A DNA stretch of 32,000 nt from Halogeometricum borinquense DSM 11551 (GCF_000172995.2 NC_014735.1:180001-212000); one strand, 5' to 3'. Positions 2 to 20,797 are shown, counted from the first letter of the stretch. The notes: generated by a model from the sequence alone, not told the origin. Numbers and translations: made by a program.

Positions 2-2056
2 AACAACATCGCAGTCAACTCGACGCTCGTCCGGTACGCTGACGCCGACGTTCGGGTCTTCGTCCCGAAAAACACGCTGGCCAGTACGCCCACCAACACG
101 GTCGTATTCGTGAAGAACAACGGTACGGCACCGATTCTGAACGCGACGGCCGCGGTTGACTACGGTGATGGCAGTAACACGACGGTCGATCTGGGTCGTA
201 TCAACGCCTCGCAGACCAACACCACGCGAGCGCCTCACACCTACAACAGTGGTGGCGATTACACGGTGACTGCGACGGTTGACGACGCAGTACCGTTCGA
301 CAACAACGAGGCAGCGAAGACGATTGAGGTCAAAGCGTTCGATCTGAACCTCGACGCGGAGGACATCTCGGTCCCGACTGACGCGACGAACGGGACGACG
401 TTCACCGCGACGGCACGGTTCCAGACGAACTACCCGACGACGGTGAATGCGACGCTCGAACTCCCGGACGGCCTCGAACTGGTCGCTTCGGAGAACGCGA
501 GCAAAGATGTCCCAGCATCCGCTACCGGTGGGACCGCTGCGTGGAAGGTCCGAGTCAACACGACTGAGGATGTCTCCGACGCGCAGGTGAACGTCACGAC
601 GAAGGCACACGGCCAAACGTCGTCGGCGAGCACCACTCTGAACCTCTCGGTGCCGAAGATCCGCCTCACGGACACCAACGCGACGACGCTTTCGTCGGGT
701 TCGGACAACGTGACGGTTGATCTGTCCAGTGCGACGACCTACGACCACACGGTGAACGTCACCGTGCAGGCTGGTTCACAGGGACGGACCCTCGCAGGCC
801 TCGAATATCTGTTCACCTACCCGTACGGGTGCGTCGAGCAGACGACGAGCCAGATGATGGGTGCGCTTCGGACGGACCAGTACTACCGCAGTGGCGACAT
901 CCCGAACAACTACAACCGGCAACGGGCGAACGACACTATCGAAATCGGTGTCGAAAAGCTCGGCACGAACCAAGCGTCCTCGCTCATCTGGCCTGATCTC
1001 GCACAGAACGAGGACGGCTCTTGGAGCATGTACGGCGGCGCCTTCTACGACGAGGGCGACCTCTACTACACGACCGCCGCGCTGCAGGGCGTGACGTCGG
1101 TTGCAAACGACGAAGTGCAAGGGACCCGCGCTGAGGTCTCAGACGATATCCAGACGGTCAACGCAAGTCGTTCGATCGAGTGGCTCTCCGACCACCAGCG
1201 CGCTGATGGCTCCGTCCCCGCGACGGATTACTTCCTCCGCGACCAGTTCTCCTCGACGGGGTACACGATGGTCGCGTTCGACCGCGCAGAGCCACACCTC
1301 AACTCGAGTGCTACGCAGACCGCCGAGGACTTCCGCGTCGATGCGGCAGTCTTCCTCATCGAGAACCAGAACAGCGACGGTAGCTGGGCGAGCGACCGAA
1401 GTCAGTCCGACATCAGCCAGAAACCGCAGGCGACTGCACTCGCGCTCCGCGGCCTCGCAACGGTCAACGAGAGCGCTGCACTCCGTCAGCGTGTGAATCA
1501 ACAAACCGATACCGACCTGTCCACTGCCATCGATAACGGTTCGCAGTGGCTGATCGACAACCAGAACGCCGATGGCTCGTGGGACGCCTATCGGAACTCC
1601 TTCTTCTGGAGTTCTAACGGCGAAGTCACGCGGGCGACGGGTCACTCGATCCTTGCACTGAACGAGACGCAGGGCGTGACGACCCAAGGAACCTCGGACG
1701 CAGCCGACTCTGTCGAGGATGCCACCGACTACCTCGTTGGCGTCTACGACAGTGACGGCTCGTTCGGTAACACCCGTGCGACGGGTGTGGCAATCAACGC
1801 GCTGACCACCGCGGACCAGCGCGGTGTCACTCCGCAGACCGTCGATGTGACGGTTGGCGGCGTGACGAAGACCGCATCGGTCGATAGTTCGACGACGACC
1901 GATACGGTCACCTTCTCGACCAGTGAACTTCAGCAGTTCCGCGACGAGGGAACTGGTAAAATCGAGTTAGAGGCACAGAACTCCGACAGCCTCGTCGTCA
2001 TCGGCGTCGAGTCGGTGCAAGTCGTGAACGAAGATGAGCATACGGAGAACAACTGA
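2..2056 (+). CDS. Secreted alpha-2-macroglobulin-type thioester-domain protein, 5' end outside the window (PKD-like, CARDB-like, thioester domain, C-terminal beta-sandwich)
   Basis: The frame of track ORF 110..2056 stays open back to nt 2 (NNIAVNSTLVRYADADVRVFVPKNTLASTPTNTVVFV...), so the GTG at 110 is internal. PKD-like motif DYGDGS...HTYNSGGDYTVTATVDD at ~150-300. Thioester signature LFTYPYGCVEQTTSQMMG resembles the bacterial A2M YPYGC[LG]EQT pattern as I recall it. Alpha/alpha-toroid-type repeats follow: QNEDGSW, NQNSDGSW, NQNADGSW, DSDGSFG. Many N-x-S/T sequons. No C-terminal anchor. Confidence 0.8.
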   Translation, partial: NNIAVNSTLVRYADADVRVFVPKNTLASTPTNTVVFVKNNGTAPILNATAAVDYGDGSNTTVDLGRINASQTNTTRAPHTYNSGGDYTVTATVDDAVPFDNNEAAKTIEVKAFDLNLDAEDISVPTDATNGTTFTATARFQTNYPTTVNATLELPDGLELVASENASKDVPASATGGTAAWKVRVNTTEDVSDAQVNVTTKAHGQTSSASTTLNLSVPKIRLTDTNATTLSSGSDNVTVDLSSATTYDHTVNVTVQAGSQGRTLAGLEYLFTYPYGCVEQTTSQMMGALRTDQYYRSGDIPNNYNRQRANDTIEIGVEKLGTNQASSLIWPDLAQNEDGSWSMYGGAFYDEGDLYYTTAALQGVTSVANDEVQGTRAEVSDDIQTVNASRSIEWLSDHQRADGSVPATDYFLRDQFSSTGYTMVAFDRAEPHLNSSATQTAEDFRVDAAVFLIENQNSDGSWASDRSQSDISQKPQATALALRGLATVNESAALRQRVNQQTDTDLSTAIDNGSQWLIDNQNADGSWDAYRNSFFWSSNGEVTRATGHSILALNETQGVTTQGTSDAADSVEDATDYLVGVYDSDGSFGNTRATGVAINALTTADQRGVTPQTVDVTVGGVTKTASVDSSTTTDTVTFSTSELQQFRDEGTGKIELEAQNSDSLVVIGVESVQVVNEDEHTENN
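830..841 (+). other. Predicted thioester-forming C-V-E-Q codons (Cys 830-832, Gln 839-841)
   Basis: tgc gtc gag cag is in frame with the 110..2056 ORF (residue 241 of the track ORF), inside GLEYLFTYPYGCVEQTTSQMMG. Confidence 0.7.
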
Positions 2057-2066
2057 GGTGATTCAG

Positions 2067-3275
2067 ATGAAGCAGACATTTACCGCAGTGACGGCCGCAC
2101 TCCTCGTGTTGGCACCGATTGCGCTCGCAATCGGTCCCGGAGCCGTAGCTGCGCAGCAAGACCCATATACGGTCGAGGTGGTAGCACCGGACGACTTCAG
2201 CACAAACGGGAATCAGACGCTCACCGTCCGTGTGACGAACAACGCGGACGACGCGTTCCTGAACCCCGTAGTCGAAGTACCGATTAGCAGTCCGCTGTCG
2301 CTTCCCGCGGGCGCGACGGACACCGTCTACGCCGATGGTGACCCGAGCAACACGCGTGAAGCAGCGGTTCAGGACAGTACGTTCCAGACCGGTGACGCAC
2401 TCGTTATCAGTGGTGCCAACATCGACGCTGGCGAGACGCGCACGTATCACTTCAACGTGACCGTCGATACGCCCGGTTCGACGACTGTCTCCGCAGACGT
2501 CCGACCGCTGTACAACACGGACCAGAACGTCCGAGCTAGTACGTCCATGACGGCACTCGGAACGGGTACCGTTTCGGCGAACGTTGTCGATACGGACGGG
2601 AACGCTGTCAGCAACGCCGACGTGTCTATCGACGGCAACGCCGTGGGTAGTAGCGTCTCCGAGACCGTCCTCGAAGGCGAACACACTGTCTCCGTGTCCG
2701 GTCTCGACGGCGATTACCCGTCGTTCACGTTCGACACGGCCGTTGGTGGTGACAACTCCGTGACGTTCGTGAAGCAGGATGAGAAGACGATTCAGCCCAT
2801 CGCTTACACCAGCGACGAGACGAACATCGTCGTCAGCAGTACCTCTCGGACCGAAGGATCGGCTGTCTCACCCGTAAATACGACCGTTTCGTTCACCTTC
2901 TCGAAGGACTCCGGAACGGCCGTCTACGAAGTCCAAGAGCCGTCCGTCGCCACCAAAGGTGACGGGACTGTCAGCACCGACGGTAATCTCGTGTCCGAAT
3001 CGATGGTTGACGGCGACAAACGACTGGAAATCAAGCCGACAGGAGCGACGACGCAAGTGGATCTCGAATACGAAGGATACGAACTCGGAAACGTGAACCG
3101 TGACGACACTGTGGACGCAACGGATGCTTCCGCGGTCTCAGCGGACGTCGCTAAGGGGCAGTCCCCTGAGTACGCCGACGTGAACGACGACGGTCGCGTG
3201 TCCGCAATCGACGCGATGTTCATCGCACAGTACGCCGCCGACAACCGAACGCCGGACTACTCGGGGGTGCAATAA
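2067..3275 (+). CDS. Secreted dockerin-bearing surface protein (Ig/CARDB-like and carboxypeptidase-regulatory-like beta-sandwich domains, C-terminal dockerin)
   Basis: ATG 2067 is preferred over the track start 2034. GAGGTGAT (2055-2062) lies 4-5 nt upstream, and the start is 10 nt after the upstream stop. Sec-type signal MKQTFTAVTAALLVLAPIALAIGPGAVAAQ. Acidic, sequon-rich body. Dockerin repeats at the C-terminus. Confidence 0.8.
   Translation: MKQTFTAVTAALLVLAPIALAIGPGAVAAQQDPYTVEVVAPDDFSTNGNQTLTVRVTNNADDAFLNPVVEVPISSPLSLPAGATDTVYADGDPSNTREAAVQDSTFQTGDALVISGANIDAGETRTYHFNVTVDTPGSTTVSADVRPLYNTDQNVRASTSMTALGTGTVSANVVDTDGNAVSNADVSIDGNAVGSSVSETVLEGEHTVSVSGLDGDYPSFTFDTAVGGDNSVTFVKQDEKTIQPIAYTSDETNIVVSSTSRTEGSAVSPVNTTVSFTFSKDSGTAVYEVQEPSVATKGDGTVSTDGNLVSESMVDGDKRLEIKPTGATTQVDLEYEGYELGNVNRDDTVDATDASAVSADVAKGQSPEYADVNDDGRVSAIDAMFIAQYAADNRTPDYSGVQ
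3087..3245 (+). other. Dockerin module (two EF-hand-like Ca-binding repeats)
   Basis: GNVNRDDTVDATDASAVSADVAKG and ADVNDDGRVSAIDAMFIAQYAADN. The second repeat fits the D-x-N-x-D-G-x-(I/V)-x-x-x-D-x-x-x-(I/L) pattern of type I dockerins. The first has N/N/D/D/D at positions 1, 3, 5, 9 and 12. Confidence 0.7.
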
Positions 3276-3276
3276 G

Positions 3277-4149
3277 ATGCGAACAAGTATGCAAGTACTC
3301 GTCACCGCGATGTGTGCCGTCATGCTCGTCAGTGCTGGGCTGACGGGATTCGCCGGTGCGCAGTCGAGCAAAACCATCTCGGTGAATGCGCAGGACACAA
3401 TCACCGAAGGGAACGCAGACGATAGTGCGACACTGGTCGCACAGAACGTTGAGGACGCCGATGGCGTCGGCGCGTACAAGGTGCACATCACCTACAACGA
3501 CAGCGCCGTCAGTCTCGATGTTTCGGGAACCTCGACGTTCGACGTGAGTACCGACCAGAGCAAGAGCGGAAACACGGTCACCCTGACTGTCGTCGGTTAC
3601 ACCGACAAAACGCAGGGACCGACCGGTCAGGTCACACTCGCAAACGTTGATGTGACCGCTAACAGCCCGAATGACGGAACTGACGTCGATGTGACGGTTG
3701 AGGAATTCTCCGATACGAAGGGTAACCTCCTTCCCCACTCCGGTGGGACAGAAAGCATCGTCATCAGCCGATCTGATGATGATGGCGGAGATGACGGTGA
3801 CGACGGTGACGACGGTGACGACGGTGACGACGGTGACGACGGTGACGACGGTGATGATGGAGATGACGGTGACGACGGTGGCGGTGGCGGCGGTGGCGGC
3901 GGTGGCGGCGGTGACGTGACCCCGACGCCGACGACCTCGACGCCCACGACTTCGACACCGACGACCTCGACACCGACGACTTCGACGCCGACGACGGACA
4001 CGCCGACGACGGATACGCCGACGACCTCGACGCCGCCGACGGACACACCAACCGATACGCCGACGGAAAGTCTGACGCCCGGATTCGGTGTCGTTGCTGC
4101 TATCACGGCGCTTCTCGCCGCGGCGCTCCTCGCGGTTCGCCGCGACTGA
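3277..4149 (+). CDS. Cohesin-domain cell-surface anchor protein with (GDD)9-G12-(TPTTS)n linker and PGF-CTERM sorting signal
   Basis: The ATG is 1 nt after the upstream TAA. Signal peptide MRTSMQVLVTAMCAVMLVSAGLTGFAGAQS. Cohesin-like body. C-terminal PGFGVVAAITALLAAALLAVRRD (nt 4078-4146) is a canonical archaeosortase-A PGF-CTERM tripartite signal. Confidence 0.85.
   Translation: MRTSMQVLVTAMCAVMLVSAGLTGFAGAQSSKTISVNAQDTITEGNADDSATLVAQNVEDADGVGAYKVHITYNDSAVSLDVSGTSTFDVSTDQSKSGNTVTLTVVGYTDKTQGPTGQVTLANVDVTANSPNDGTDVDVTVEEFSDTKGNLLPHSGGTESIVISRSDDDGGDDGDDGDDGDDGDDGDDGDDGDDGDDGDDGGGGGGGGGGGGDVTPTPTTSTPTTSTPTTSTPTTSTPTTDTPTTDTPTTSTPPTDTPTDTPTESLTPGFGVVAAITALLAAALLAVRRD
3367..3768 (+). other. Cohesin-like module
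   Basis: The spacing resembles type I cohesins: ...ATLVAQNVEDADGVGAYKVHITYNDSAVSLDVSG... (compare G(I/V)xxxxFxIxYDxxVL) and ...SGNTVTLTVVGYTDKTQGPTGQVTLANVDVTANSPNDGTDVDVTVEEFSDTKGNLL.... By-eye match only. Confidence 0.6.
3775..3912 (+). repeat. Coding tandem repeats: 9-bp ggtgacgac units (GDD x9), then 12 consecutive Gly codons (3877-3912)
   Basis: Direct reading gives ...gacggtgacgacggtgacgacggtgac... followed by ggt ggc ggt ggc ggc ggt ggc ggc ggt ggc ggc ggt. Confidence 0.95.
3919..4062 (+). repeat. Coding 15-bp tandem repeats encoding (TPTTS/TPTTD)n, a Thr/Pro-rich putative O-glycosylated stalk
   Basis: acgcccacgacttcg / acaccgacgacctcg units. Protein TPTPTTSTPTTSTPTTSTPTTSTPTTDTPTTDTPTTSTPPTDTPTDTPTE. 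Confidence 0.9.
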
Positions 4150-4164
4150 GCAACGCGACCATTC

Positions 4165-4181
4165 GGTTTTCCCACTTTTTC
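4165..4181 (+). terminator. Oligo-T tracts downstream of the cohesin gene (archaeal-type terminator candidate)
   Basis: ggttttcccacttttt begins 16 nt after the TGA at 4147-4149. Confidence 0.4.
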
Positions 4182-4428
4182 GAGTAGCCGATTGCCGTTA
4201 TCCGACCCTCAGTCGAGGGCGGGTCGTTTCCGCGACCGAGTTGCTATCATCTTTGTTACTGTCCCCATATGAGATCACGTACCAATACTCACAGGTACAA
4301 TCTTCAAATGGGTACCCGACGTGTACTTAGTGCGGCTAGGATGTGAGGTACTGTCATGGTCTGATCGCCTACCCAGGCCGTCAACCAGTACCTACACCGT
4401 CCGAAACAGTAGCTCCCTCAATCTGAAT

Positions 4429-4665
4429 ATGCCTGACGAACACTACGAAGCAGGTGAACACGTACCATCGTCGCTCACAGCGCATACGGCACCGGACGAC
4501 CTTCGTTTCACGACGGCAGTCGATGTCTATGCCGGATATGGCAGTCAATGGCACGTCTATCCGGTAGAAGCCGTCGAGTCTCGAAGCGAGATCCTCACAG
4601 AACCTCCGGAACACCTCGATACAGACGTATCGTTGTACACACTTCCGTACGAACAACTCCGATAA
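4429..4665 (+). CDS. Small acidic hypothetical protein (78 aa)
   Basis: Internal ATG of track ORF 4321..4665. The product MPDEHYEAGEHVPSSL... is acidic, as is typical of haloarchaea. A TTTTT run (4670-4674) follows the TAA. No recognisable domain. Confidence 0.35.
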   Translation: MPDEHYEAGEHVPSSLTAHTAPDDLRFTTAVDVYAGYGSQWHVYPVEAVESRSEILTEPPEHLDTDVSLYTLPYEQLR

Positions 4666-4815
4666 TCGCTTTTTGTCGCTCCATGCAGTCGTTCGGGGGG
4701 TCGTTAGTTTGTGTCTCGTTCCGACGAGGACGCTGCTACGTGTGTACTATCCGCCGTGATATCGCATCGAACGAAAAAGCGCGGGATGGTTCTATCCGGT
4801 CCGCTATTCCTAGCG

Positions 4816-5925
4816 TCAGTTCGTGGCACGACGCGCCAGGAGCGTCAGCGAAACGAACAGGATGAGGAGGCTGATGTCCGGGAGGACCGGTGTCTCCGTG
4901 GTTGTCGTCTGTACAGCCGTAGACGGTGCTGTTGACGATGCCGTTTGGGTCGGCATCGTCGTCGCCGTCGTGTTTTGAGGTGGTTCGGTGGAAGTGGTGT
5001 CCGTCACCTGTTCGGTCGTCGAATCAGCAGGCGACGAAGTGGTGGCGTCTGTATCTTCGTCCGCAGAGTCTCCACCTGCGGGCTGTTGTCCGTTCGGAGC
5101 CGACTCACTCGTTGTCGGTGTCGTCGTTGGTGTCGTCGTCGGTGTTGCCGTCGGAGATTCCGTCTCAGTTGGTGATTGCGGTTCCGTCGTACTCGGTGTC
5201 GACGGCTGTTCGGCCACGACGGAGAGCTGCTGTGAATCGCTCAGACCGATGAGTTCCTTCTCTCCGAATACTTCGTTGTCGCGCCGAACCGTGCTGTAGA
5301 CTCGATAGTCCCCGGTCGAGAGCGAACTGAGGTCAACAGTGGCAGTGTAAGTTAGGTCGGACTGTTTCGTCGCAGTCGTACGAACTGAGTCCGTATCGTC
5401 TCCGACGACAACTTCGACAGTTGCCGGCGGTGGCGATACGTCGTTGCTCACCTTCGTCAACTCGACGCTTACCTCCATCTGGCCGTCGCTCTCAGCACTC
5501 TCTGGCGCATGCTGGTCAACCGTGTATCCGGCAACCACGAGCGGTTGGACGGCGTATACCTCCTCGCTTCCATTCATTATTGCGACTGCGTACGTCCCCG
5601 GGTCGTATCGGTCGAGTTCGAACCTCGACTCGTCGTCGCCCACCCCGGGATTGCTGTGCATGAGTTCCTGTTCGCTGTTTATTATCCGAACTGTGTACTC
5701 CTTGTCTGACGGAGCGTTGGTCGTAACCGAGACGTAGTCACCAGTTTGGTATTTTCCGATGTCTGTGACTGTCTGTTCGCCCCACTTTGTTTCGATTGTT
5801 CGGTCGGGAATATCGACAGATTCCTCGGTACTGATACGATAATCCGCCGTTTGCCCGATTGAGACGGGAACCGTCAACAGGCAAACTGCGAGGAAAACGC
5901 CTAGACAGACTCGAGTCGAGGCCAT
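4816..5925 (-). CDS. Secreted surface protein with beta-sandwich body, Thr/Pro-rich stalk and a non-PGF C-terminal TM anchor
   Basis: Signal peptide MASTRVCLGVFLAVCLLTVPVSIGQ. Stalk ...PSTPSTTEPQSPTETESPTATPTTTPTTTPTTS.... C-terminus TETPVLPDISLLILFVSLTLLARRATN (hydrophobic helix plus basic tail). Oligo-T on the coding strand at ~4771-4777. Confidence 0.75.
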   Translation of the reverse strand: MASTRVCLGVFLAVCLLTVPVSIGQTADYRISTEESVDIPDRTIETKWGEQTVTDIGKYQTGDYVSVTTNAPSDKEYTVRIINSEQELMHSNPGVGDDESRFELDRYDPGTYAVAIMNGSEEVYAVQPLVVAGYTVDQHAPESAESDGQMEVSVELTKVSNDVSPPPATVEVVVGDDTDSVRTTATKQSDLTYTATVDLSSLSTGDYRVYSTVRRDNEVFGEKELIGLSDSQQLSVVAEQPSTPSTTEPQSPTETESPTATPTTTPTTTPTTSESAPNGQQPAGGDSADEDTDATTSSPADSTTEQVTDTTSTEPPQNTTATTMPTQTASSTAPSTAVQTTTTETPVLPDISLLILFVSLTLLARRATN

Positions 5926-6029
5926 GTGCTATACGACCATTTCCGCAGTGAGGATAAGTGTGTTTCTTCGTCCGCGTACGCACGCCCATTCGCCCGCCCG
6001 CCCCGAAGCTCACTCTCGCAACCCAATGA

Positions 6030-6233
6030 TGAAAACTAACCGGTAATTACAACTAGTTAATCAGTACCATCCACTGACATCTTCACAAAGTACTTAACTG
6101 ATCCGTCATTTGTCTCATCTACCCCTACCCGAGACGACACGCTGGCGAGTAAGCTGTGTCCCCAGCCCTTCAGGATATTGGGACGTCAACAAACGGCCAA
6201 AGCCTGTGTCGTCGTACCAACGATAGACAAACC
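6030..6233 (+). promoter_or_regulatory. AT-richer upstream region of the S-layer gene (promoter and probable long 5' leader)
   Basis: The locally AT-rich stretch aaaactaaccggtaattacaactagttaatcag contains the perfect palindrome AACTAGTT (6051-6058). No TATA box could be pinned down. The 308-nt divergent intergenic region is shared with the 4816..5925 gene. Confidence 0.3.
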
Positions 6234-9053
6234 ATGACAAGTAATACGAAGCAGTTCCGCGCAGTATTCCTCGCGGCGCTGATGGTTATGTCGGTCTTCG
6301 CCGGCACCATCGCGTTCGCTGGAAGTGCTGCTGCGGTCTCTGGTGCGTCCAAAGTAACCTTCAGTCCGACAGATGTCGATGAGGGTGAAACGGGCAGCCA
6401 GCACAACGTGAACGTATCGATTTCTGGATATACTAACGCTGATGGCGCTGCGGATACCATCAACGTCACGCTCCCCGCGGGCGTGACGTTCGCCAACTCC
6501 AATCTGGTCATCGAGAACGCCTCGGGCACCCAGATCGGCACTGGCTCCGTCACCTTGACGAACAACGACGCTAGCGCAGAGATCAGCATCAACCCTGCCT
6601 CTGGCGACGTTACGGACCCGATCTACCTGAGCGGTACCGTGACGGTTGACGCGCCGAGCAACATCGGATCCGACCAGCAAGGTCAGGTCACGCTCTCGAT
6701 GACGCAGTCTGACGGATCTGACCTCGCTGCGACTGACATCCAGCAGCTCACCGTCAACAACCTTGAGGAGGACAACACTGCTCCGAGCTTCGAGGACGCA
6801 GACCTCTACGACAACGACACGTCCGCGAGCGAGGATGCTGAACTCGAACTGGCCTTCAACGAGCCTATCAAGGACATCGAGAAGAGCGACTTCAACCTCT
6901 ACGTCGACGAGGAGCCGATTGCAGACAGCAAGATCTCGCTCGATCAAAAGGGAAGCTCCGGTCGCGTCGTGCTCGGTCTCGACGACGTCTACACGGGCGA
7001 CGTGGAGATCAAGCTCTTCGATAGCATCGAGGACACCTCGGGTAACGCACTCGACGACACGGGTAACAAGACGGTAACCGTCGCTCCCGTGCCGGTGAAG
7101 GATGGCAGCGACATCAACGCCTACCAGGGCTCCAACATCGCTGTTATCACCGATAAGACGCAAACCGAGATTACTGTTGAGGCCTCTGACGACGAGGACT
7201 TCGACTCCTTCCAGGAAGGTAACACTGGCACGAACAGTCAGGTCTACGTCTTCAGCACGACCGACGACACTGAAACCGGTCAGTACAACATCACTCTCAA
7301 GGGCGAGGGCAGCGCGCAGGTCAACGTCCGTAACCTCGGCCTCGAAGTGAACATCGACGACCTCAACGTCACGACTGAAGACGAGATTGAGGGAGTAGTC
7401 GAGGCGAAGGCAGGCAACCGTCCGGTCCGACTCGAACTGCTCGACTCCGACGGTGACACCGTCGAACAACGTGACGTCGAACTCTCGGGTCAGCGCAAGT
7501 ACGAGTTCTCGTTCAACGCATCGGAACTCGACCTCGACGCAGACAACTACACGGTCCTGGCGACGGACAAGCAGTCCGGCGTCGAATCCGAATCCTCCTC
7601 GATCGTTGTTAAGAAGGCCGGTGAGGGCCGCACATCGTTCCCCGGAGACCGTCTCTTCGTGGACCAGCGCGGTGACGTTGCGAACATCACGATCAACGTC
7701 GAAAACTCCGACTTCGCAACTCTGTCGCTCGGGTCGGACGATCTCGCCTTCGAGAGCAACGTGACGATCGAAGACGTCAACGGTGACGGACAGGTCAGCC
7801 TCCTGTTCAACACCTACGCCGCAACCGGAATGTCCGGTGACCTCGGCGATGGCGGTAACGTCTACAGTACCCCGTCGCTCGAAGATCAGGACGACGACGA
7901 GATCACCTCTGCAACTATCGAGCAGAGTGTCAAGTCGCTCCTCGAGCCGGGCCGGTACCCGCTCGAAGTCCGCGCGGGTCAGGATGAGACTGTCGACTCC
8001 GAAGACGCTGGTACGCTCGAGCTCGAAGAGCGTAACACGACGAACATCCAGAGCTGGGTCGCCCCGACTGGTACGAACTTCGAAGATATCGACGAACTCT
8101 ACGACGCAGTAGAGAACAACAACCTCACGCAGGCGAACAAGATTGCCAAAGGCGACATAGCGGTCCACAAGCTCGAGGCCTCCGGTCTTGAAGGGCTCCT
8201 TGGTGCACAGTCGGACGACGACGTGTCCAGCGAGTTCTTCTCCGAAGTCAATAGTGACGGCGCCTTCGAGCTCACCGTTGAGCAAGCGAACCCCGGTGCG
8301 AACCGCGACCCGTACGAACTCGAACTCGGTACGGACAACACGACTGTCTGGGCCGACTCCGACAACAACACGTACTTCATCAAGTACGATACGGACCAGG
8401 TCACGACGACCGAGCGTTCGATTGACAAGGATCACGTGCTCGAAGCGAACTTCACGGTCTACGAGGACGAAGGTAACCTCACCGACGTAGACGACGGTGA
8501 GACGGTCAAAGACGAGTACGAAGTTGTCGAGGCCGACTACATGATCGACGACCCGTACAACGTGACGAATGCTGCTGGTCAGACGATCATGGCCGAGACG
8601 ACTGTCGCGCCTGGTACGGAAGTCAGCGTACGAGCCCGCTCGACGGGTGACACGCAGCCGAGCTTCCTGAAGCCCGCGACCGTCTACGTCACCGAGAACC
8701 AGACGTTCTCGGCTACGCTCGACTTCAGCGAACAGGCAGTTGGCGACACCTACGAAATCACGATCGACGGCGGCGCAGCTGACTCTGTAACGGTTGATGG
8801 TAACGTCGTCGAGAGTCCCGAGACGCCGACGCCGACGGACACGCCGGACAACGAGACGGACACGGCGACTGACGGCGAAGATACGCCGACGGACACGCCG
8901 ACGCCGACGGCCACGCCGACTGACGGCGGAGACACGCCGACTGACGGCGGAGACACTGAAACTGAAACCGGCACGGGTACGCCCGGCTTCGGTGTCGTCG
9001 TTGCTGTCACGGCACTCCTCGCCGCGGCGCTCCTCGCAGTCCGCCGCGACTAA
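6234..9053 (+). CDS. csg: S-layer (cell surface) glycoprotein, PGF-CTERM anchored
   Basis: ATG 6234 is preferred over track start 6156. The signal peptide MTSNTKQFRAVFLAALMVMSVFAGTIAFAGSAAA closely resembles the haloarchaeal Csg signal peptide as I recall it from Haloferax (…LMVTSVFAGAIAFTGSAAA). 939 aa and very acidic. About 20 N-x-S/T sequons by hand count. Thr/Pro/Asp-rich C-terminal stalk and PGFGVVVAVTALLAAALLAVRRD (8982-9050). Confidence 0.85.
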   Translation: MTSNTKQFRAVFLAALMVMSVFAGTIAFAGSAAAVSGASKVTFSPTDVDEGETGSQHNVNVSISGYTNADGAADTINVTLPAGVTFANSNLVIENASGTQIGTGSVTLTNNDASAEISINPASGDVTDPIYLSGTVTVDAPSNIGSDQQGQVTLSMTQSDGSDLAATDIQQLTVNNLEEDNTAPSFEDADLYDNDTSASEDAELELAFNEPIKDIEKSDFNLYVDEEPIADSKISLDQKGSSGRVVLGLDDVYTGDVEIKLFDSIEDTSGNALDDTGNKTVTVAPVPVKDGSDINAYQGSNIAVITDKTQTEITVEASDDEDFDSFQEGNTGTNSQVYVFSTTDDTETGQYNITLKGEGSAQVNVRNLGLEVNIDDLNVTTEDEIEGVVEAKAGNRPVRLELLDSDGDTVEQRDVELSGQRKYEFSFNASELDLDADNYTVLATDKQSGVESESSSIVVKKAGEGRTSFPGDRLFVDQRGDVANITINVENSDFATLSLGSDDLAFESNVTIEDVNGDGQVSLLFNTYAATGMSGDLGDGGNVYSTPSLEDQDDDEITSATIEQSVKSLLEPGRYPLEVRAGQDETVDSEDAGTLELEERNTTNIQSWVAPTGTNFEDIDELYDAVENNNLTQANKIAKGDIAVHKLEASGLEGLLGAQSDDDVSSEFFSEVNSDGAFELTVEQANPGANRDPYELELGTDNTTVWADSDNNTYFIKYDTDQVTTTERSIDKDHVLEANFTVYEDEGNLTDVDDGETVKDEYEVVEADYMIDDPYNVTNAAGQTIMAETTVAPGTEVSVRARSTGDTQPSFLKPATVYVTENQTFSATLDFSEQAVGDTYEITIDGGAADSVTVDGNVVESPETPTPTDTPDNETDTATDGEDTPTDTPTPTATPTDGGDTPTDGGDTETETGTGTPGFGVVVAVTALLAAALLAVRRD
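8915..8956 (+). repeat. Perfect 21-bp tandem duplication (gccgactgacggcggagacac x2) encoding PTDGGDT PTDGGDT in the Csg stalk
   Basis: Direct reading: 8915-8935 is identical to 8936-8956. Confidence 0.95.
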
Positions 9054-10053: not shown

Positions 10054-13050
10054 CTATCGTTCGGTCCGAAGCAGGCGTTCGGGGTCGTGACTGAGGAAGG
10101 CGTATCCGACGCCGAGTGCACTGCCAATCGCAAGTGCAAGCGCGCCGAGTCCAGTCCCGAGGAGGAGTTCTACGGACTGGGGCGCGTGCAGTTTAATGCC
10201 GAAGATGACGAGTACGTCGCTTCGAGCGAGAACGTAAATGACGGTGAACGCCGTCCCGAATGCGATAGCTATCGCCGGAAGTGACAGTTTGACTGCATCC
10301 ACGGCGAGTACTCCGAGTAGTTGCCGGCGACTCGCACCCGTCGCACGGAAGATACCGATTCGGCGTCGGTTTGCGTGGACGGCATGAGCGAACGTTGCCG
10401 CTGTCCCACCGACCGTACTGACGCCAGCGAGAGCGATCATAACGAGGAACAGTACTCGAACGTTCCCGAAGACGCTCTCGATGGCGTGGTTGATGGCCGT
10501 CCCTTGTGAGTACTCGCCTTGGGACGCGAGCGTAGCGGTGACCCGTTCGTCACCGGTGACGCGGTACGTCGTCGTTGCGAGGACAATCTCATCCGAGACT
10601 AATCGGAGGTCGTACGTTCCGGGGGTGAGCGAGTCATCAAGTCCCGCGTCCGAGGCCGGAATACGAATTTGCGTGATATTGCCGCCGGTCATTTCCACGG
10701 TTCGGTGTTCCGTCTCCGCGGGGGTAACGAGCGAAACGTTTCGCACGAAAAACTGCCCCCATGGGTTCGCCAACTGTACCGTTACCTCCGGCTTGGTCAA
10801 TCGTGTTCCGCGTTGTGGTGATACCTGTAGTCGTCCGATGAGGCGCTGCGGTGCATCCTCTTCGACGACGAGCGTGCGCCGCTCGCTCGTGTAGTTCTGT
10901 TTCTCGATAGTGAGCGTGTACTCACCCGGTTCCGTGGGTACGCGCATGAGGACAGTGCCCTGCTCGTTCGTCGTACCCTGCCGATCTCCGAGCGTTACTG
11001 TCGCCCCCGTAACGGGCGTCTCGTTCCGCGTCGTCGCGGGGACGATGAGTGTCGAACCCGGTGGTGCCCGTCTGGGGAACTTCGCGGGGAGTCGGAGCGT
11101 TCGCGGACTGAACACTTCGACTGACTTGGTCATTTCTGCCGCTGTTATCGTGTGCGTTCCCGGCTCTGCGAAGGTGAACCCGACATCGGCCGCGCCGCTT
11201 TCTCCCGGCCCGACAGAGAGCGTTCGACTGCGCGTCCTGTTATCAGCGCGAACCGTTACGTTCCGCGTCGCGGCTTTCTTCCCAAGGTTCTCTCCTCGAA
11301 CCGTCAGCGTGTACGTGTGGTTAACTTCTACCGATGACGAACCTGATAGCTCGGTCACGACGATACCGCTTGATTGCCCCGCAAATCGCTCGAAGTCGAG
11401 CGTATCACCGTTCGTCCGGATGAGGTGAACGGTTTTACTGTCGGTGGCTAACTGCTGTCCCGTCTGTAGCGGAATGAGTAGTTGGTCGTCGGTGATACCG
11501 TCGCCCGAGAATCGCCCGACAATTGTGAGTCGCCGAACGCCGGGCGTGACACTTCCACCGACCATTATCGTCTCACCCACGCTGACATCGAGCGTGTCCG
11601 CGAGACTTGTCCCGATAACGGCCTCGTCGTAGGCCGCTGGGGTCCGCCCTTCGACTACTGTCGTATTCGAAACCGCGCTGAACGCCGTGTAGTTCGCTCC
11701 GCGAGCGAGATACGGTTCGCCGTTTCGTGTCTGCGCGTACAGTACCTCTGGACTCGCCGTGATGTTCTGCGAGCGCAGGACCGACGCGTACTCCTCGCTG
11801 ATTCGGCTATTCAGCGGGTGCGTGATACCGGCCTCGGTGACAGTGCCGCTCGACGTCGTTGCCAGTGGTGCGAGTGCGCCGCCGATTGCAGTCGTGAGGA
11901 GGATAACCAGCACGAAGACGGCAACTGTCGTCGTCGTCGGAACGACCGCCCGCCAATCGACGAACGTGGGCTGGACGAGCGAGAGCCGTTCTCGAACCCG
12001 TGTCGCAATCGACTGTGTCGTGTTCGTGGAGCGGCCGATTGTCGCAGGACTCCCTCGAACGACGGGAACTGATGCGAGAACGCCGGCGAGCACGCCCATC
12101 CCGAGGAGGAAGCCACCGATCTGTAGCACTGCCCACAGAATATCCGACGTGACGACGGCCCGTATCGTGACCGGCAATCCGGCGTACGTCGCCGCGTTGA
12201 TGACGGCTTTTGTCGTGATGAGACCGATTGCAAAGCCCAATATCACCCCTGTCCCGACGAGTCCGAGAACCCGCCCTTGCAGCACAGCGAAGAGACGGAT
12301 CGGTGAGATACCGGTCGCCCGCGCCACCCGTATCTCCGGATGGCGGTCGCGTATCGACATTCGCGTCACGTTGTAGACGACGACAAGGATGAGTAATCCG
12401 CCGCCGACGGCGGCGATGGTGAGCGTTCGTATCACCTGCCCGAGACCGCTGACTAAGAACGGTAACGCGCCGATCAGTGGTGCTCCCTGTTCTTGCCACT
12501 GTGCGATACCTGCCGGTTCTCCTCCGGCCTCGATGACGAGTGCGCCTGATGCTCCGAGTGATGTAACCGTATCAGCCGATCCGACGTACCACTCCGCCGG
12601 GAATATCGACTGTTCGGGCGGGTGTGGTGACACCGTCGTGTCGGTCGTTCCGACGGGGAGTTGTGTCGTTCGGGGGACTGGACCGTATAGCCCCTCGTCC
12701 GGAGCGCTGGGGACGGTCGCTGGTTGCCATGCGACCGACGCCTCCTCGATTCTCGGTGGGGCGTCCGGCGGAATCCCGACGACCGTTCGGGTGTGACCGT
12801 CGATATCGACACGTATGAGCGGAAATACGAGGTCTCCCGTATCCGTGGCGGCGACGGCAGCGTCGTGTGACTCGTAATACGTCGCCGTCGAAGCGCTTTC
12901 GAGGTCGCCTTCGAGCGTCGATGTGTAGGAGCCGACAGTCAGCAAGAGGACGGCGGAGCCGATGAGAAACGCCGTGGTGACGGCGATGACAGCGACACTC
13001 AGCCACTCCCGGCGAGACCACGACGAAAGCAGCGTCGATTCGAATCGCAT
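10054..13050 (-). CDS. Giant double-FtsX (MacB-like, type VII ABC) permease with large extracytoplasmic beta-sandwich-rich domains, paralogue 1
   Basis: Two FtsX-module signatures: MSIRDRHPEIRVARATGISPIRLF and ANRRRIGIFRATGASRRQLL. MacB-periplasmic-core-like YDEAVIGTSLADTLDVSVGETIMVGGS. A carboxypeptidase-regulatory-like repeat ATVTLGDRQGTTNEQGTVLMRVPTEPGEYTLTIEKQNY. Starts 18 nt downstream of the ATPase gene. Confidence 0.9.
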   Translation of the reverse strand: MRFESTLLSSWSRREWLSVAVIAVTTAFLIGSAVLLLTVGSYTSTLEGDLESASTATYYESHDAAVAATDTGDLVFPLIRVDIDGHTRTVVGIPPDAPPRIEEASVAWQPATVPSAPDEGLYGPVPRTTQLPVGTTDTTVSPHPPEQSIFPAEWYVGSADTVTSLGASGALVIEAGGEPAGIAQWQEQGAPLIGALPFLVSGLGQVIRTLTIAAVGGGLLILVVVYNVTRMSIRDRHPEIRVARATGISPIRLFAVLQGRVLGLVGTGVILGFAIGLITTKAVINAATYAGLPVTIRAVVTSDILWAVLQIGGFLLGMGVLAGVLASVPVVRGSPATIGRSTNTTQSIATRVRERLSLVQPTFVDWRAVVPTTTTVAVFVLVILLTTAIGGALAPLATTSSGTVTEAGITHPLNSRISEEYASVLRSQNITASPEVLYAQTRNGEPYLARGANYTAFSAVSNTTVVEGRTPAAYDEAVIGTSLADTLDVSVGETIMVGGSVTPGVRRLTIVGRFSGDGITDDQLLIPLQTGQQLATDSKTVHLIRTNGDTLDFERFAGQSSGIVVTELSGSSSVEVNHTYTLTVRGENLGKKAATRNVTVRADNRTRSRTLSVGPGESGAADVGFTFAEPGTHTITAAEMTKSVEVFSPRTLRLPAKFPRRAPPGSTLIVPATTRNETPVTGATVTLGDRQGTTNEQGTVLMRVPTEPGEYTLTIEKQNYTSERRTLVVEEDAPQRLIGRLQVSPQRGTRLTKPEVTVQLANPWGQFFVRNVSLVTPAETEHRTVEMTGGNITQIRIPASDAGLDDSLTPGTYDLRLVSDEIVLATTTYRVTGDERVTATLASQGEYSQGTAINHAIESVFGNVRVLFLVMIALAGVSTVGGTAATFAHAVHANRRRIGIFRATGASRRQLLGVLAVDAVKLSLPAIAIAFGTAFTVIYVLARSDVLVIFGIKLHAPQSVELLLGTGLGALALAIGSALGVGYAFLSHDPERLLRTER

Positions 13051-13068
13051 CTCAGCCCCCGAGCGCGG

Positions 13069-13767
13069 TCATTGCCGCGGAGAGTAGTCTATCGATTCCA
13101 GCTCGTCGTCGTCCGCATCTGTGATGCGGCCGTCTTGGAGGAGTACTGTCTCCGCGAACCGCGGTGCTAACCCTCGGTCGTGGCTGATGAGTACGAGAGC
13201 GGTATCCGTCTGCGCTTTGACTCTGAAGAGGAGATCAAGCACGCGCTCGGCCGTGTTCGGGTCGAGTTGTCCTGTCGGTTCGTCCGCCAGCACAACGTCG
13301 GGTTTGTTCGCCAGCGCGCGGGCGATGGCGACGCGTTGTTTCTCCCCGCCGCTCAGCGTAGTTGGGTACTGCTCTCTGAGGTCTGTGATGTCGAGCGCGT
13401 CGAATAGCGTTTCGAGCCACGATTCGTCGCGGCTCCCGGTGTGGTCCTGCGGGAGCGCGGCGTTGTCCCACGCGGAGAGGTCCGGAATCAGCTGAAAATC
13501 CTGAAACACGAACCCAATCGTATCGCGCCGAATCGCGGCGCGCTTTCGCTCCGGTAGCGAACTGGCGTCCTCGCCGTTGACGAAGAGTGACCCGCTGGTC
13601 GGTGTACTCAGTAGTCCGAGAACGTTGAAGAGAGTCGTTTTGCCAGCGCCGCTCGGGCCTCTGACAAGGAGCGACGTGTCGTCGGCGACATCGAGCGAGA
13701 TGCCGTCGAGAATGACGCTCCCTCCCCGTTCGACAGTGACGTTTTCGCCGCGGAGCACGGGTGCCAT
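13069..13767 (-). CDS. ABC transporter ATP-binding protein (MacB/LolD-type)
   Basis: Walker A GPSGAGKTT, Q-loop FVFQDFQLIPDLSAWDN, signature LSGGEKQRVAIARAL, Walker B VVLADEPTGQLD, H-loop ISHD. Confidence 0.95.
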   Translation of the reverse strand: MAPVLRGENVTVERGGSVILDGISLDVADDTSLLVRGPSGAGKTTLFNVLGLLSTPTSGSLFVNGEDASSLPERKRAAIRRDTIGFVFQDFQLIPDLSAWDNAALPQDHTGSRDESWLETLFDALDITDLREQYPTTLSGGEKQRVAIARALANKPDVVLADEPTGQLDPNTAERVLDLLFRVKAQTDTALVLISHDRGLAPRFAETVLLQDGRITDADDDELESIDYSPRQ

Positions 13768-13843
13768 CTTGCCGCCACGTTCACGCTTCTCCTATGTATG
13801 TCGTTTGCTTCTGTGAGTTACAAACTGACGACACGAATCGACG

Positions 13844-14362
13844 CTACCGCTTGACCGGATGCTGGTGCCGACTCCACGCCCAGACTGCCACCGCCACGAT
13901 AGCAAGCGAGAACTGAACTCGCATCCCGAGACCGAAGCCGTGGTTGAGCAGTCGTACCCACGGCGGTATTCCGTCGTTCGGATAGTTGATTGCGGGGAAC
14001 ACGGGCCAGAGGAGGAATCGAAGCTCCGTCCACTGCTGTGTGAGAACGAGTCGATAGGAGTCGCCGAGTACGTGTGAGAGCGTGCCGACACTGAGGATCG
14101 GCCACAGCGGCCGCCGTTCGAGGTGAACCAAGATTGTCCCCACGAGGAGCAGCACTGGGACGAGAACCACGAGCGAGTGTGCGAGCGAGCGCCCACTCGA
14201 CAGCACGCCGATGTACACGAGCGGTTTGTCCACGAGGTCAGGGAGTTGCGATGCCACGACGAGGATGGCAAGCGGACGGCCGTGCGGCAGTTGGATATCC
14301 GTGACTCTCGCGTAGAGAACGTAGCTGAGATATGCCAGCGCGAGATGCCCGATTGGATACAC
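13844..14362 (-). CDS. Membrane-bound metal-dependent hydrolase-like protein (DUF457/YdjM-like)
   Basis: GTG start. Small polytopic protein with His-containing motifs MYPIGHLALAYL, LAHSL and LSHVLGDS, typical of that family as I recall it. The 190-aa alternative-frame ORF (13792..14364) is Ser/Arg-rich and not membrane-like. Confidence 0.7.
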   Translation of the reverse strand: MYPIGHLALAYLSYVLYARVTDIQLPHGRPLAILVVASQLPDLVDKPLVYIGVLSSGRSLAHSLVVLVPVLLLVGTILVHLERRPLWPILSVGTLSHVLGDSYRLVLTQQWTELRFLLWPVFPAINYPNDGIPPWVRLLNHGFGLGMRVQFSLAIVAVAVWAWSRHQHPVKR

Positions 14363-14416
14363 ACGTAGAGTCGCTTGCGGCGGACGTATCAGTGTTCGGT
14401 TCCGACGCCGTCGCGT

Positions 14417-16075
14417 CTAACAACCCGAGTACTGACCGCTCGGCATCGAGATGACGAGTGGGTCGCGTCCGTTTGAGGCGTAGACCACGTTTCGAGACGA
14501 GAGCCACCGGTCGTACGCTTCCGGTGAGACCGTTTTCGGGGCTGTCGGGAACAGGTGTGCCCCGGTCGTCGTCCACGACCGCTGTGAGAGGACCGGACAG
14601 GATGGACTCGAACCTCCGGTCAACCAGTTTGCAACGGGGTCGAACGTTGCGTTTTCGTCGAATACGTACACTCCGATTCGCGTAACTGGATGGTCGCTTA
14701 CCCAGTCCGACTCGCTTTGGGTGCTGACGAACTCGATGCCCTGATACTCGGACGGCATGGTCGTTGTGAGGGCTGACCCGGAGTCTAAGTTGATGAACGC
14801 AAGCGGTGCCGAGGCGGTCACGGTCGCAACGACGAGTAAGACGAGCAGTATGCGGAGTGCTCGCCGTGGGCTACTGTCACCCCGCCGTTCGAGCAATCGC
14901 GCAACGGTGATCGCACTGATGATCAAGATCGGGAGGTGAAGGAACGTCTGTGCGCGCATTGCAGTGGCGAAGTACTCGGGTGTGAGCGACGCCGTGAGGC
15001 TAAAACCGATGATGACGGCCGGCGCGGAAAACAGTGCCACGAGGAGGAAAGCACCGCGATATTCATCGAGAACATCCAGCGAGGCGACCGCTGCGAGTGC
15101 AACGACGACGAGCAGACTCACCAATCCGAGTACGGTTCGTGGCGTGGTCACCGTGCCCGGGAAGATGGGCGTGAACGCGTTCAGGATCACAACGGCGAAG
15201 AACGAGCCGATGACCGCGAGATACGTTCCCTGCCTGATGCGGAGGCTGGTGTGTTGGATCCACACCACGCCGATAACGAGGACGATACCCCACGCGACGA
15301 ACAGTCCCGGATAGGCCGTGATGCGATCCACGTACGGAACGGTGAGCGAAAGGCTCGTTGCCGCAGTCCGGTAGTAGACGGCGATGTACGCCCAAAACCC
15401 ACCTGCAAGCCCGACACCACAGAGCAGCGAGCGGCGTGTCAACGTCCGCGAGACGTGCAGTGCAGTCAGCGCAGTGACGATCAATCCGACGACGAGCGAC
15501 GTGAACGTGTGTAATATCGGGAAGATACCGAGAAGCAGTCCGACGATACCGTACCATCGTCGCTGGCCCGTCCGGAAGGCGTAATGAAGCGAGACCGCAA
15601 CGATCAAAGAGAGGAGGATTGCGACGATTTCTTCGTCCGGGACGGCCGTTCGTCGCAGGAATAATCCTTGGACCGCGAGGAGACCGGCCGTGACTGTGGC
15701 GACAGTAGACGGTCGGACCGAGAGGTGCGGAGTATCGCGGACGATGCGGCGTGCGACGACGGCACCGACGAAACAGATGATCGCACCGATTGTCGTCGCT
15801 AGCGGTTGGGCCACGTATAGCGGATCAGCATCGAATACGGTGCCGGTGACAGCGAACAGCGACGTGAACAGCAGGCTATCCGCCCGTCCGGTGAGCGGCA
15901 CCGACCCGGTTTCGGTCGCCGTCCGCGCCATCGCGGCGTAGTTGAAGCCGTCCAACGTCGAGGGATACGGACTCAGGTGGAGTGGAAACGACCGGATCGC
16001 AAGCGCTAGCAGTACTAGAGCGGTGAGGGCGAGTCCGAACCGTCGTCGTCGTTTACGCATCGCGTCGTTCCCCAC
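14417..16075 (-). CDS. GT-C-fold-like polytopic membrane glycosyltransferase candidate (ArnT/PMT/AglS-like) with a C-terminal extracytoplasmic domain
   Basis: More than 10 predicted TM helices. The first loop LDGFNYAAMARTATETGSV aligns with the ArnT-type DETRYAEISREMLASGDW motif (D..YA...R.....G). ~130-aa soluble C-terminal domain. Overlaps the upstream permease stop by 23 nt, or by 8 nt if the alternative ATG 16060 is used. Confidence 0.75.
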   Translation of the reverse strand: MGNDAMRKRRRRFGLALTALVLLALAIRSFPLHLSPYPSTLDGFNYAAMARTATETGSVPLTGRADSLLFTSLFAVTGTVFDADPLYVAQPLATTIGAIICFVGAVVARRIVRDTPHLSVRPSTVATVTAGLLAVQGLFLRRTAVPDEEIVAILLSLIVAVSLHYAFRTGQRRWYGIVGLLLGIFPILHTFTSLVVGLIVTALTALHVSRTLTRRSLLCGVGLAGGFWAYIAVYYRTAATSLSLTVPYVDRITAYPGLFVAWGIVLVIGVVWIQHTSLRIRQGTYLAVIGSFFAVVILNAFTPIFPGTVTTPRTVLGLVSLLVVVALAAVASLDVLDEYRGAFLLVALFSAPAVIIGFSLTASLTPEYFATAMRAQTFLHLPILIISAITVARLLERRGDSSPRRALRILLVLLVVATVTASAPLAFINLDSGSALTTTMPSEYQGIEFVSTQSESDWVSDHPVTRIGVYVFDENATFDPVANWLTGGSSPSCPVLSQRSWTTTGAHLFPTAPKTVSPEAYDRWLSSRNVVYASNGRDPLVISMPSGQYSGC

Positions 16076-19217: not shown

Positions 19218-19264
19218 GAATGTCTTTCGGAATCACACGTAGACTCTGTGGCTGAGTCAACCGG

Positions 19265-19285
19265 GCACCTACACAGAGTAGGTGC
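19265..19285 (+). repeat. Perfect 8-bp inverted repeat (GCACCTAC acaga GTAGGTGC)
   Basis: Direct reading. Lies 23 nt upstream of ATG 19308. Confidence 0.9.
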
Positions 19286-19292
19286 GACCAAA

Positions 19293-19306
19293 CACACACA
19301 CACACA
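19293..19306 (+). repeat. (CA)7 dinucleotide microsatellite immediately upstream of ATG 19308
   Basis: cacacacacacaca ends 1 nt before the ATG. It lies inside the reading frame if GTG 19248 is the start. Confidence 0.95.
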
Positions 19307-19307
19307 A

Positions 19308-20546: not shown

Positions 20547-20565
20547 CAACACCTCAACGACGACC

Positions 20566-20580
20566 GCTCTCGTTTTTGCT
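20566..20580 (+). terminator. Oligo-T (ctctcgtttttgct) downstream of the GT2 gene
   Basis: TTTTT at 20573-20577, 27 nt after the TAA. Confidence 0.4.
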
Positions 20581-20773: not shown

Positions 20774-20789
20774 ATAATCGGTCGATTAT
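20774..20789. repeat. 7-bp perfect inverted repeat ATAATCG gt CGATTAT
   Basis: Direct reading. Lies 8 nt upstream of the tetramer array. Confidence 0.85.
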
Positions 20790-20797
20790 GCCACCTA

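Follow-up and report, generated by a model that had tools for sequence, protein, structure and literature searches.

Animal innate immunity depends centrally on thioester proteins (TEPs) of the alpha-2-macroglobulin (A2M)/C3 family, which also protect the periplasm of bacteria. This analysis deals with a set of genes that probably provides a system of the same general kind in an archaeon, located at positions 2–4149 (+ strand) of a 32,000-nucleotide (nt) stretch of DNA from Halogeometricum borinquense DSM 11551, referred to throughout as the window. The three genes of this module encode, in order, a protein with a thioester domain (TED; gene 1), a secreted protein that ends in a dockerin (gene 2) and a cohesin protein that ends in a PGF-CTERM sorting signal (gene 3), and together with the gene of a DUF8159 lipoprotein upstream of the window they are read here as a surface-tethered, two-chain archaeal system resembling A2M and the TEPs. 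An earlier interpretation, made from the DNA by itself (the sequence-only reading), had proposed that the three genes supply an anchor, a plug-in partner and a covalent warhead; synteny and gene fusion now give that idea a much better foundation, with the correction that gene 2 does not appear to be an independent client.

Archaeal A2M homologues have already been described, the exemplar being WP_050459478.1, a protein of Haloferax gibbonsii ARA6 with a signal peptide, and an intact CxEQ motif was reported in the TED of 27 proteins from 24 genomes (Makarova et al., 2021, Front Microbiol, PMC8416519). The exemplar is apparently the orthologue of gene 1, and the neighbours named in that study are arCOG14565, antimicrobial-peptide (ABC) transporters and endoproteases. 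The statement of the sequence-only reading that no described system has this combination was too strong in view of this published family, although cohesins and dockerins go unmentioned in it: neither word occurs in the main text, and in the part of the supplement covered “cohesin” appears only in unrelated neighbourhoods. Within the same portion of that account, the split and fused architectures, the cohesin–PGF-CTERM anchor gene and the fusion to a subtilase of family S8 are likewise absent. A literature search on cohesins or dockerins with PGF-CTERM, in haloarchaea or in Haloferax, found nothing relevant, and work on ANME (anaerobic methanotrophic) archaea notes that cohesin and dockerin proteins abound there, with no role yet assigned. 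As far as the literature covered shows, the cohesin–dockerin–archaeosortase tether, the split-gene architecture and the modular link to a subtilase are new.

Among better-known systems, the bacterial A2Ms (E. coli YfhM/ECAM and Salmonella A2M; 4ziq, 4u48) are thioester proteins tethered at the surface or envelope, which they protect by trapping proteases, and their motif, YPYGCxEQT, is nearly identical; a profile of the archaeal TED matches YfhM at an E-value (E) of 4e-9. However, the bacterial proteins are single chains, made as N-terminal periplasmic lipoproteins with PBP1c as a partner, whereas the H. borinquense system has no lipobox, two chains, a predicted C-terminal tether and repeats that score as CARDB rather than bMG. 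PBP1c was not found among the module neighbours that were read (DUF8159, dockerin, cohesin and ABC/FtsX genes). CD109 is a cell-surface thioester protein anchored to lipid through glycosylphosphatidylinositol (GPI). Like the archaeal system as predicted here, it is a lipid-anchored surface TEP, and it matches the archaeal profile over the whole TED, but its anchoring is direct, whereas that of the H. borinquense module would run through a cohesin–dockerin adaptor. C3 and C4 also function as multi-chain proteins, but their chains arise from one precursor by proteolysis, while here they are separate genes. On the side of the anchor, cellulosomal scaffoldins (R. flavefaciens ScaE and C. thermocellum OlpA/OlpC, sortase- or SLH-anchored) combine a single cohesin, a Thr/Pro-rich linker, covalent fixation to the envelope by an enzyme of the sortase type and a dockerin partner. 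They are among the fold matches of gene 3, as are cohesins from outside cellulosomes (A. fulgidus 2xdh, C. perfringens NagJ). What sets gene 3 apart from the scaffoldins is its predicted PGF-CTERM/archaeosortase lipid anchor, a putative thioester-protein cargo in place of a glycoside hydrolase, and a score below the Pfam cohesin cut-off.

The three genes are co-directional (gene 1, 2–2056; gene 2, 2067–3275; gene 3, 3277–4149; all +), and their coordinates, junctions and layout are exactly those noted in the sequence-only reading. The window holds the C-terminal 684 codons of gene 1; its remainder was taken from AOHT01000044.1 (assembly GCA_000337855.1; locus L001), to which gene 2 matches exactly and which makes 53 kb around the window available. 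The open frame runs from L001:4333 to 9990. The deposited start at L001 4612 (1792 amino acids, aa) leaves the protein with no signal peptide and omits about 88 N-terminal residues (L001:4348–4611), while an in-frame ATG at L001 4348 restores a Sec-type signal peptide, MRLGNSNRTKLISLVLVGVVVFSTVVGPVSAASA, and gives a protein of 1880 aa encoded at L001:4348–9990. This signal peptide has no lipobox Cys; it is followed by six CARDB beta-sandwich repeats (98.7 bits over six stretches of the full-length protein, Pfam), the TED and a short beta-strand tail. The full 1880 aa, whose N-terminus had been out of reach in the sequence-only reading, were searched for a dockerin, a cohesin and a C-terminal anchor, and none was found.

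The TED, an alpha/alpha-toroid, is encoded at 773–1804 (+) and is recognised by the Pfam TED_complement model PF07678 at 39.8–43.6 bits (cut-off 22; the window fragment gives 43.6 bits, E 2.7e-11), in line with the 42–48 bits of its homologues. The thioester motif GCVEQ lies at 827–841 (+; Cys 830–832, Gln 839–841) in the context YPYGCVEQ, which bears out the A2M/C3-type signature that had been called apparently intact. The archaeal TED family is small: an exhaustive HMMER search of 1.84 billion cluster representatives recovered no more than 111 relatives at E<=1e-3, of which 61 reach E<=1e-10. CxEQ is present in all representatives that extend over the site, mostly in the form YP[YHN]GC[VPIA]EQT.S. 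In an alignment of 51 representatives whose pairwise identity is <=50% by construction, R38, G42, L43, L46, P50, C53, E55 and Q56 are 100% conserved, and CxEQ with its flank is the best-conserved block of the domain.

Comparison with known structures depended on how the search was made. Full-length gene 1 matched nothing meaningful in the PDB by phmmer, the TED alone as a single query gave weak A2M matches (E 0.12–0.5), and a 12-sequence family profile was needed to reach A2ML1 (5e-14), CD109 (1.8e-13, over the whole TED), C4 (2e-13), TEP1 (1e-12), YfhM (4e-9, as above) and human A2M (3e-8). These A2M-family matches cover the full TED including the thioester site. The strongest PDB match of the same profile was to the QW repeats of squalene-hopene cyclase (E 2e-26), and it is partial (profile positions 195–327). 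The archaeal TEDs keep QW repeats of this kind, and since these outscore every TED of the A2M family, the archaeal domains may sit between the terpenoid cyclase toroids and the animal TEDs. The domain of gene 1 is thus confirmed as a predicted A2M-type TED with an intact CxEQ, and its Cys and Gln would be expected to form the thioester. Some 50 residues ahead of the TED and some 80 behind it are rich in beta-strand, an arrangement compatible with insertion into a CUB domain; the post-TED beta-strand tail (1805–2053, +), which ends in VVIGVESVQVVNEDEHTENN and has Q449 conserved in 98%, may then be the returning CUB-like half.

The link between gene 1 and gene 2 comes from relatives in which the two are one protein. 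About 30 of some 46 full-length representatives stop between a few and about 70 residues past the TED module, like gene 1, and about 14 carry 400–480 extra residues after the TED, a module of the size of gene 2. Around 10 of these longer proteins align with gene 2 itself, at E-values between 1.5e-47 and about 1e-5, and a dockerin tail of the type ...DAM.IAQY closes most of them. In the fused forms examined, a linker of 30–70 residues takes the place of the stop codon and signal peptide of the split forms. The fusion extends to P0010, a protein of 1187 aa and non-halophile composition with its TED at residues 424–733 and a dockerin-like tail at its end, to which residues 49–351 of gene 2 align downstream of the TED (860–1162, E 3e-16). 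Because parts like gene 1 and gene 2 are fused in relatives, gene 2 is, as far as sequence relationships can tell, most likely a C-terminal part of the thioester protein that has become a separate chain, rather than an independent client. The caveat of the sequence-only reading that a physical link of gene 1 to the other two was unproven is largely resolved by fusion in these relatives and by synteny, while gene 1 itself still has no dockerin. About seven other relatives have a C-terminal transmembrane or PGF-like tail, for which reason surface tethering looks like a trait of the family; with a direct anchor, a fused dockerin and a dockerin on a separate chain all seen, the family appears to reach the surface in three ways.

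P0010 is itself one of two adjacent large surface proteins (L005:2–2458 and 2480–6043) on a non-halophile, methanogen-like contig. Both share a single-loop dockerin-like tail (RYDA.G.GRI.RSEA...YF.G), which hints at a shared docking partner.

Gene 2 (2067–3275, +) encodes a signal peptide (residues 1–30), three beta-sandwiches (34–146, 155–235 and 242–335) and a C-terminal dockerin. An AlphaFold2 (AF2) model built from 12 sequences (mean predicted local distance difference test, pLDDT, 84.3) shows a disordered signal peptide, the three beta-sandwiches and the dockerin helices. The type-I dockerin (3087–3245, +) is matched by Dockerin_1, PF00404, on residues 342–389 (38.2 bits, cut-off 22.9, E 1.7e-9), and by the CelS dockerin 1daq at E 0.005; among 13 homologues of gene 2, a PF00404 match is precomputed in 12. 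It consists of two Ca loops, NVNRDDTVDATD and DVNDDGRVSAID, each followed by a helix (351–362 and 380–389, pLDDT about 90 in the AF2 model). The description of gene 2 as a secreted beta-sandwich protein with a C-terminal dockerin is therefore upheld by both the Pfam score and the model.

Gene 3 (3277–4149, +) begins with a signal peptide and a single cohesin module (residues 31–165; 3367–3771, +), recognised through a homologue profile and through its fold. The five-sequence profile of gene 3 matches the NagJ cohesin of C. perfringens (2jh2, 2ozn, 2o4e) at E 3e-4 to 5e-4, and homologues of gene 3 score 21.8–23.2 bits on the Pfam cohesin model PF00963, just under its cut-off of 24.1. The AF2 model of the domain (pLDDT 82.8) is a nine-stranded flattened beta-sandwich with cohesin topology, and the best 50 PDB matches returned by Foldseek are all cohesins (E 3e-7, TM-score <=0.82, 2vo8), 2xdh and the sortase-anchored ScaE among them. 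On this evidence the domain is accepted as a diverged cohesin. The module is followed by a stalk (3772–4074, +) with a (DDG)n acidic run, a 12-Gly run and (TPTTS)n Thr/Pro repeats. The repeats are likely O-glycosylated, and the stalk matches only the C-terminal linker of haloarchaeal S-layer glycoprotein models. Its low complexity swamped the phmmer comparison of gene 3 with the PDB and also the search of the large database with full-length gene 3, which gave six hits only. At the C-terminus, the PGF-CTERM archaeosortase sorting signal (4075–4146, +; TPGFGVVAAITALLAAALLAVRRD) has the PGF motif, the hydrophobic helix and the basic tail, and scores 31.9 bits on PF18204 (cut-off 18.8) and 41.7 bits on TIGR04126 (cut-off 24.5). 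A single cohesin on an acidic, Gly- and Thr/Pro-rich stalk with PGF-CTERM, as first described, is what homologue profile, fold and anchor models together recover.

The order of the TED, dockerin and cohesin–PGF genes is kept in at least five haloarchaeal genera and in several brine-metagenome contigs. Dockerin motifs were common in the contig survey, and its genus and locus tallies are lower bounds. The genera are Halogeometricum, Halorarius, Natronomonas, Haloarchaeobius and Haloferax, the last with H. gibbonsii, H. marisrubri, H. prahovense (two paralogous cassettes), H. denitrificans and Haloferax sp. S1W. The junctions in the syntenic loci are 0–10 nt wherever they were read, and identity between gene 2 proteins falls as low as 27–38%. 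A conserved fourth gene, off the window and missed by the sequence-only reading, belongs to the same neighbourhood: a DUF8159 protein of 163 aa (L001:3637–4128, − strand, about 4.2 kb upstream of window position 1) with a KRRAFL twin-arginine signal and an IAGC lipobox. This Tat-lipoprotein gene adjoins the module in the genome loci; four metagenome loci have enough flank to judge, and three of them show it as well. It is placed either divergently upstream or convergently downstream, and it is probably arCOG14565, annotated as “associated with polymorphic toxin loci”.

Taken together, these observations suggest an assembly of the following kind. The first chain (gene 1), with its long array of CARDB/MG-like beta-sandwiches and its TED, would be secreted by the Sec route, and the second chain (gene 2), the split-off C-terminal module, would be secreted separately by its own signal peptide. 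The thioester would form as the first chain folds outside the cell, and the second chain would re-associate with it non-covalently, in the way that C3 and C4 keep their chains assembled. Through its dockerin, the second chain would bind the single cohesin of gene 3 in a Ca2+-dependent manner, gene 3 would be lipid-anchored by ArtA through PGF-CTERM, and the stalk would set the complex at the height of the S-layer. Such a tether would place a latent thioester between Cys and Gln beyond the membrane, level with the S-layer. By analogy with A2M, CD109 and TEPs, the thioester would be exposed by cleavage or conformational change and would form a covalent bond with a nucleophile in its vicinity, the likeliest being an attacking or partner protease, with the effect of shielding the envelope; a foreign surface is the alternative. 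As to function, protease trapping, adhesion and envelope defence, all named by the sequence-only reading, are candidate roles; a protease-triggered covalent trap guarding surface proteins is favoured because of the analogy with YfhM and with GPI-anchored CD109, and the target itself is proposed on the same comparative grounds.

Several observations weigh against this interpretation. The N-terminal array of gene 1 scores in Pfam as CARDB and not as MG domains; in the related protein of locus L010 an MG4 match reaches 29.4 bits (cut-off 24.7), and MG2 falls below its cut-off there. The repeat nearest the TED region (62–331, +) is CARDB/PKD-like, with CARDB at 21.9 bits (residues 21–95 of the 684-aa fragment) and PKD_4 (residues 31–110) both slightly below cut-off. 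The MG10 domain of A2M and the MG8 domain of C3 shield the thioester. Gene 1 has no such receptor-binding MG8/MG10 domain following its TED, and the first domain of gene 2 could not be assigned to that position, with bMG10 and A2M matches that stay sub-threshold (E 0.0005–0.07): bMG10 gives E 0.01–0.07 on this domain, and across 18 homologues of gene 2 PF00207 appears in five (best 5e-4) and bMG10 in two (best 0.0026). A profile of the same domain found only spurious Fab matches in the PDB, and the whole chain retrieved by Foldseek generic Ig-like folds of pilins, integrins and MSCRAMMs, with C4 and C3c only at E about 3e-4. No bait region was identified, and bait regions have no sequence signature by which to find one. 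PF00963 returns no match to gene 3 at E<=10, with either the full length or the isolated domain; TED, dockerin and PGF-CTERM, all invoked by the sequence-only reading, were recovered above cut-off by profile models, and the cohesin was missed by Pfam. The association of the two chains and the pairing of dockerin with cohesin are both predicted from sequence. To these points the subtilases must be added.

A Peptidase_S8 domain is found at the N-terminus of the TED chain in six of about 46 representatives and at the metagenome loci L010 (1612–9999) and L011 (1–7785). Seven of the eight S8-fused proteins checked have intact His (HGTH) and Ser (GTSMA) motifs; in the remaining one, P0034, nothing of the GTSMA type is matched. 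The Haloferax gibbonsii group has a separate S8 protease of 734 aa with its own dockerin, of a different subtype, encoded two genes upstream of the module (L009:374–2578, +), and its residues 1–658 are 46% identical to the N-terminus of the fused L010 protein. The S8–TED pairing is a second fusion relationship, which ties a protease to the system in many lineages and which did not figure in the sequence-only reading. The recurrence of active-looking S8 domains, fused or adjacent, fits uneasily with a pure anti-protease role, and because of these fusions a complement/TEP-like tagging or adhesion role stays alive. In its full form, this would make the system a covalent adhesin or opsonin instead of a protease trap, in which the tethered thioester attaches the cell or the subtilase to a foreign cell, virus, particle or protein substrate, with the subtilase as activating “convertase” or delivered effector and with TEP1/C3b tagging and the Gram-positive thioester adhesins as models. 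The HGTH and GTSMA motifs of the fused domains and the likeness of the Haloferax protease to them speak for this, as do the grouping of the loci among inter-microbial conflict systems (Makarova et al., PMC8416519) and the higher scores of CD109, C4 and TEP1 over bacterial A2M with the TED profile. On the other hand, no S8 gene was found in the 53 kb around the window, a target-recognition domain was not identified in the system, and the alignment is unreliable at the residue that sets hydroxyl versus amine reactivity; overall, such a role seems unlikely. A bolder version, which we regard as distinctly improbable, is that haloarchaea and some methanogen-type archaea possess a complement-like modular machine, with a thioester chain, a dockerin adaptor and often a dedicated subtilase on a lipid-anchored cohesin stalk; the subtilase, fused in cis or brought by its own dockerin, would act as the activating convertase, and foreign proteins or cells would be covalently tagged or trapped at the S-layer. 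If true, archaea would have a cascade of protease plus TEP that is put together through cohesin–dockerin pairing rather than in solution.

Two further explanations dispense with the thioester or with the module. The toroid might be a binding module like those of terpenoid cyclases and prenyltransferases, with the operon serving, like many others in archaea, as a cohesin–dockerin display cassette for a large structural or adhesive glycoprotein and no thioester chemistry involved. The cyclase match, the strongest one in the PDB, fits this idea, as does the NCBI name of one homologue, [quoted passage not shown], and the thioester bond is a prediction. Yet the cyclase matches are confined to part of the profile while those of the A2M family span the TED, the Pfam TED model scores above its cut-off, and the C, E and Q of CxEQ with their flank are invariant in 51 divergent sequences; because this block is the most conserved of the domain, a merely cyclase-like toroid is very unlikely. 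Another way of looking at the locus is to take its genes as independent neighbours, with gene 1 a free secreted protein, genes 2 and 3 a separate pair that displays only the beta-sandwich protein, and the common direction due to chance or shared regulation. Each gene has its own signal peptide, and the thioester protein bears no dockerin, cohesin or anchor, as this explanation would have it. Against it stand the roughly 14 representatives in which parts like these two are a single chain (about 10 with a direct gene 2 match, the first part being like gene 1), the persistence of the gene order down to 27–38% identity, and junctions of 10 nt and 1 nt, and we consider it highly improbable. The gene set as first noted is real and well beyond chance, and the tethered two-chain system stays the probable reading; what has been observed of it is the identity of the domains, a CxEQ that does not vary, fusion of the genes in relatives and their synteny.

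If this reading is right, it suggests how a TEP can be used in a cell with no periplasm or cell wall, namely as two secreted chains held through a dockerin by an archaeosortase-anchored cohesin, and it would give the non-cellulosomal cohesin–dockerin pairs of archaea a concrete and conserved cargo. The split and fused forms apparently constitute a natural pair for studies of A2M-family assembly, and the repeated subtilase link is relevant to the question of whether complement's combination of a protease with a thioester protein is older than the eukaryotes. The predictions are experimentally accessible because Haloferax is genetically tractable and carries orthologous cassettes.

At the level of the DNA, gene 1 stops at TGA 2054–2056 and is separated by a 10-nt spacer, GGTGATTCAG, from the ATG of gene 2 at 2067, a start that the alignment of homologues favours over an upstream ATG at 2034. 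The spacer contains a Shine–Dalgarno (SD)-like GGTGAT (2057–2062, +), a sequence expected to be complementary to the 3′ end of 16S rRNA. Gene 2 stops at TAA 3273–3275, and a single G precedes the ATG of gene 3 at 3277; the 10-nt and 1-nt junctions with the SD-like sequence suggest translational coupling. Gene 3 stops at TGA 4147–4149 and is followed by two oligo-T runs, T4 and T5 (4167–4180, +; 18–31 nt past the stop), which plausibly form an archaeal terminator. All three proteins have Sec-type signal peptides. A scan with bacterial-type promoter and terminator models was uninformative in this archaeal host, and PADLOC defence models gave zero matches for the four proteins (genes 1–3 and DUF8159).

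Downstream of the module lies a gene for a PGF-CTERM glycoprotein (6156–9053, +) with DUF7827, halo_surf_dom and a signal peptide of the haloarchaeal surface-glycoprotein type. The model of the ArtA-dependent S-layer glycoprotein, whose cut-off is 1100 bits, gives it 576, and it is for that reason taken as a paralogue or a diverged S-layer protein; its last 24 residues are almost identical to the C-terminus of gene 3. The adjacency of this gene, offered as context by the sequence-only reading, is specific to this genome: no counterpart of the S-layer-like gene (6231–9050) stands beside the module in any of the 14 other loci searched, and the S-layer link was rejected. Between the two, at 4816–5925 (−), a secreted protein of 369 aa has a DUF3244-like domain, a Thr/Pro-rich linker and a hydrophobic C-terminal tail, and at 10054–19031 (−) a MacB-like exporter set comprises two FtsX-domain permeases of about 1000 aa each, an ABC ATPase and a 552-aa protein of no known family. 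The 4816–5925 gene and the ABC/FtsX genes are syntenic with the module in the Haloferax/Halogeometricum clade only and are thus not part of its core; the exporter set probably corresponds to the “antimicrobial peptide transporters” of Makarova et al.

Further along the window, a surface-glycan island (19248–31640) contains genes for a GT2 glycosyltransferase, for dTDP-sugar synthesis of the RmlA/RmlB/RmlD type and for a flippase of the Wzx/MurJ type, along with part of a sulfatase gene; a hybrid PAS histidine kinase is also encoded there. GC content drops from about 0.60 to 0.39–0.49 at 27–31 kb, which suggests horizontally acquired sequence. Finally, in a brine metagenome, the gene upstream of the TED gene (L006:3–1307) encodes a PGF-CTERM protein that begins with a domain very similar to the one at the N-terminus of the TED protein.

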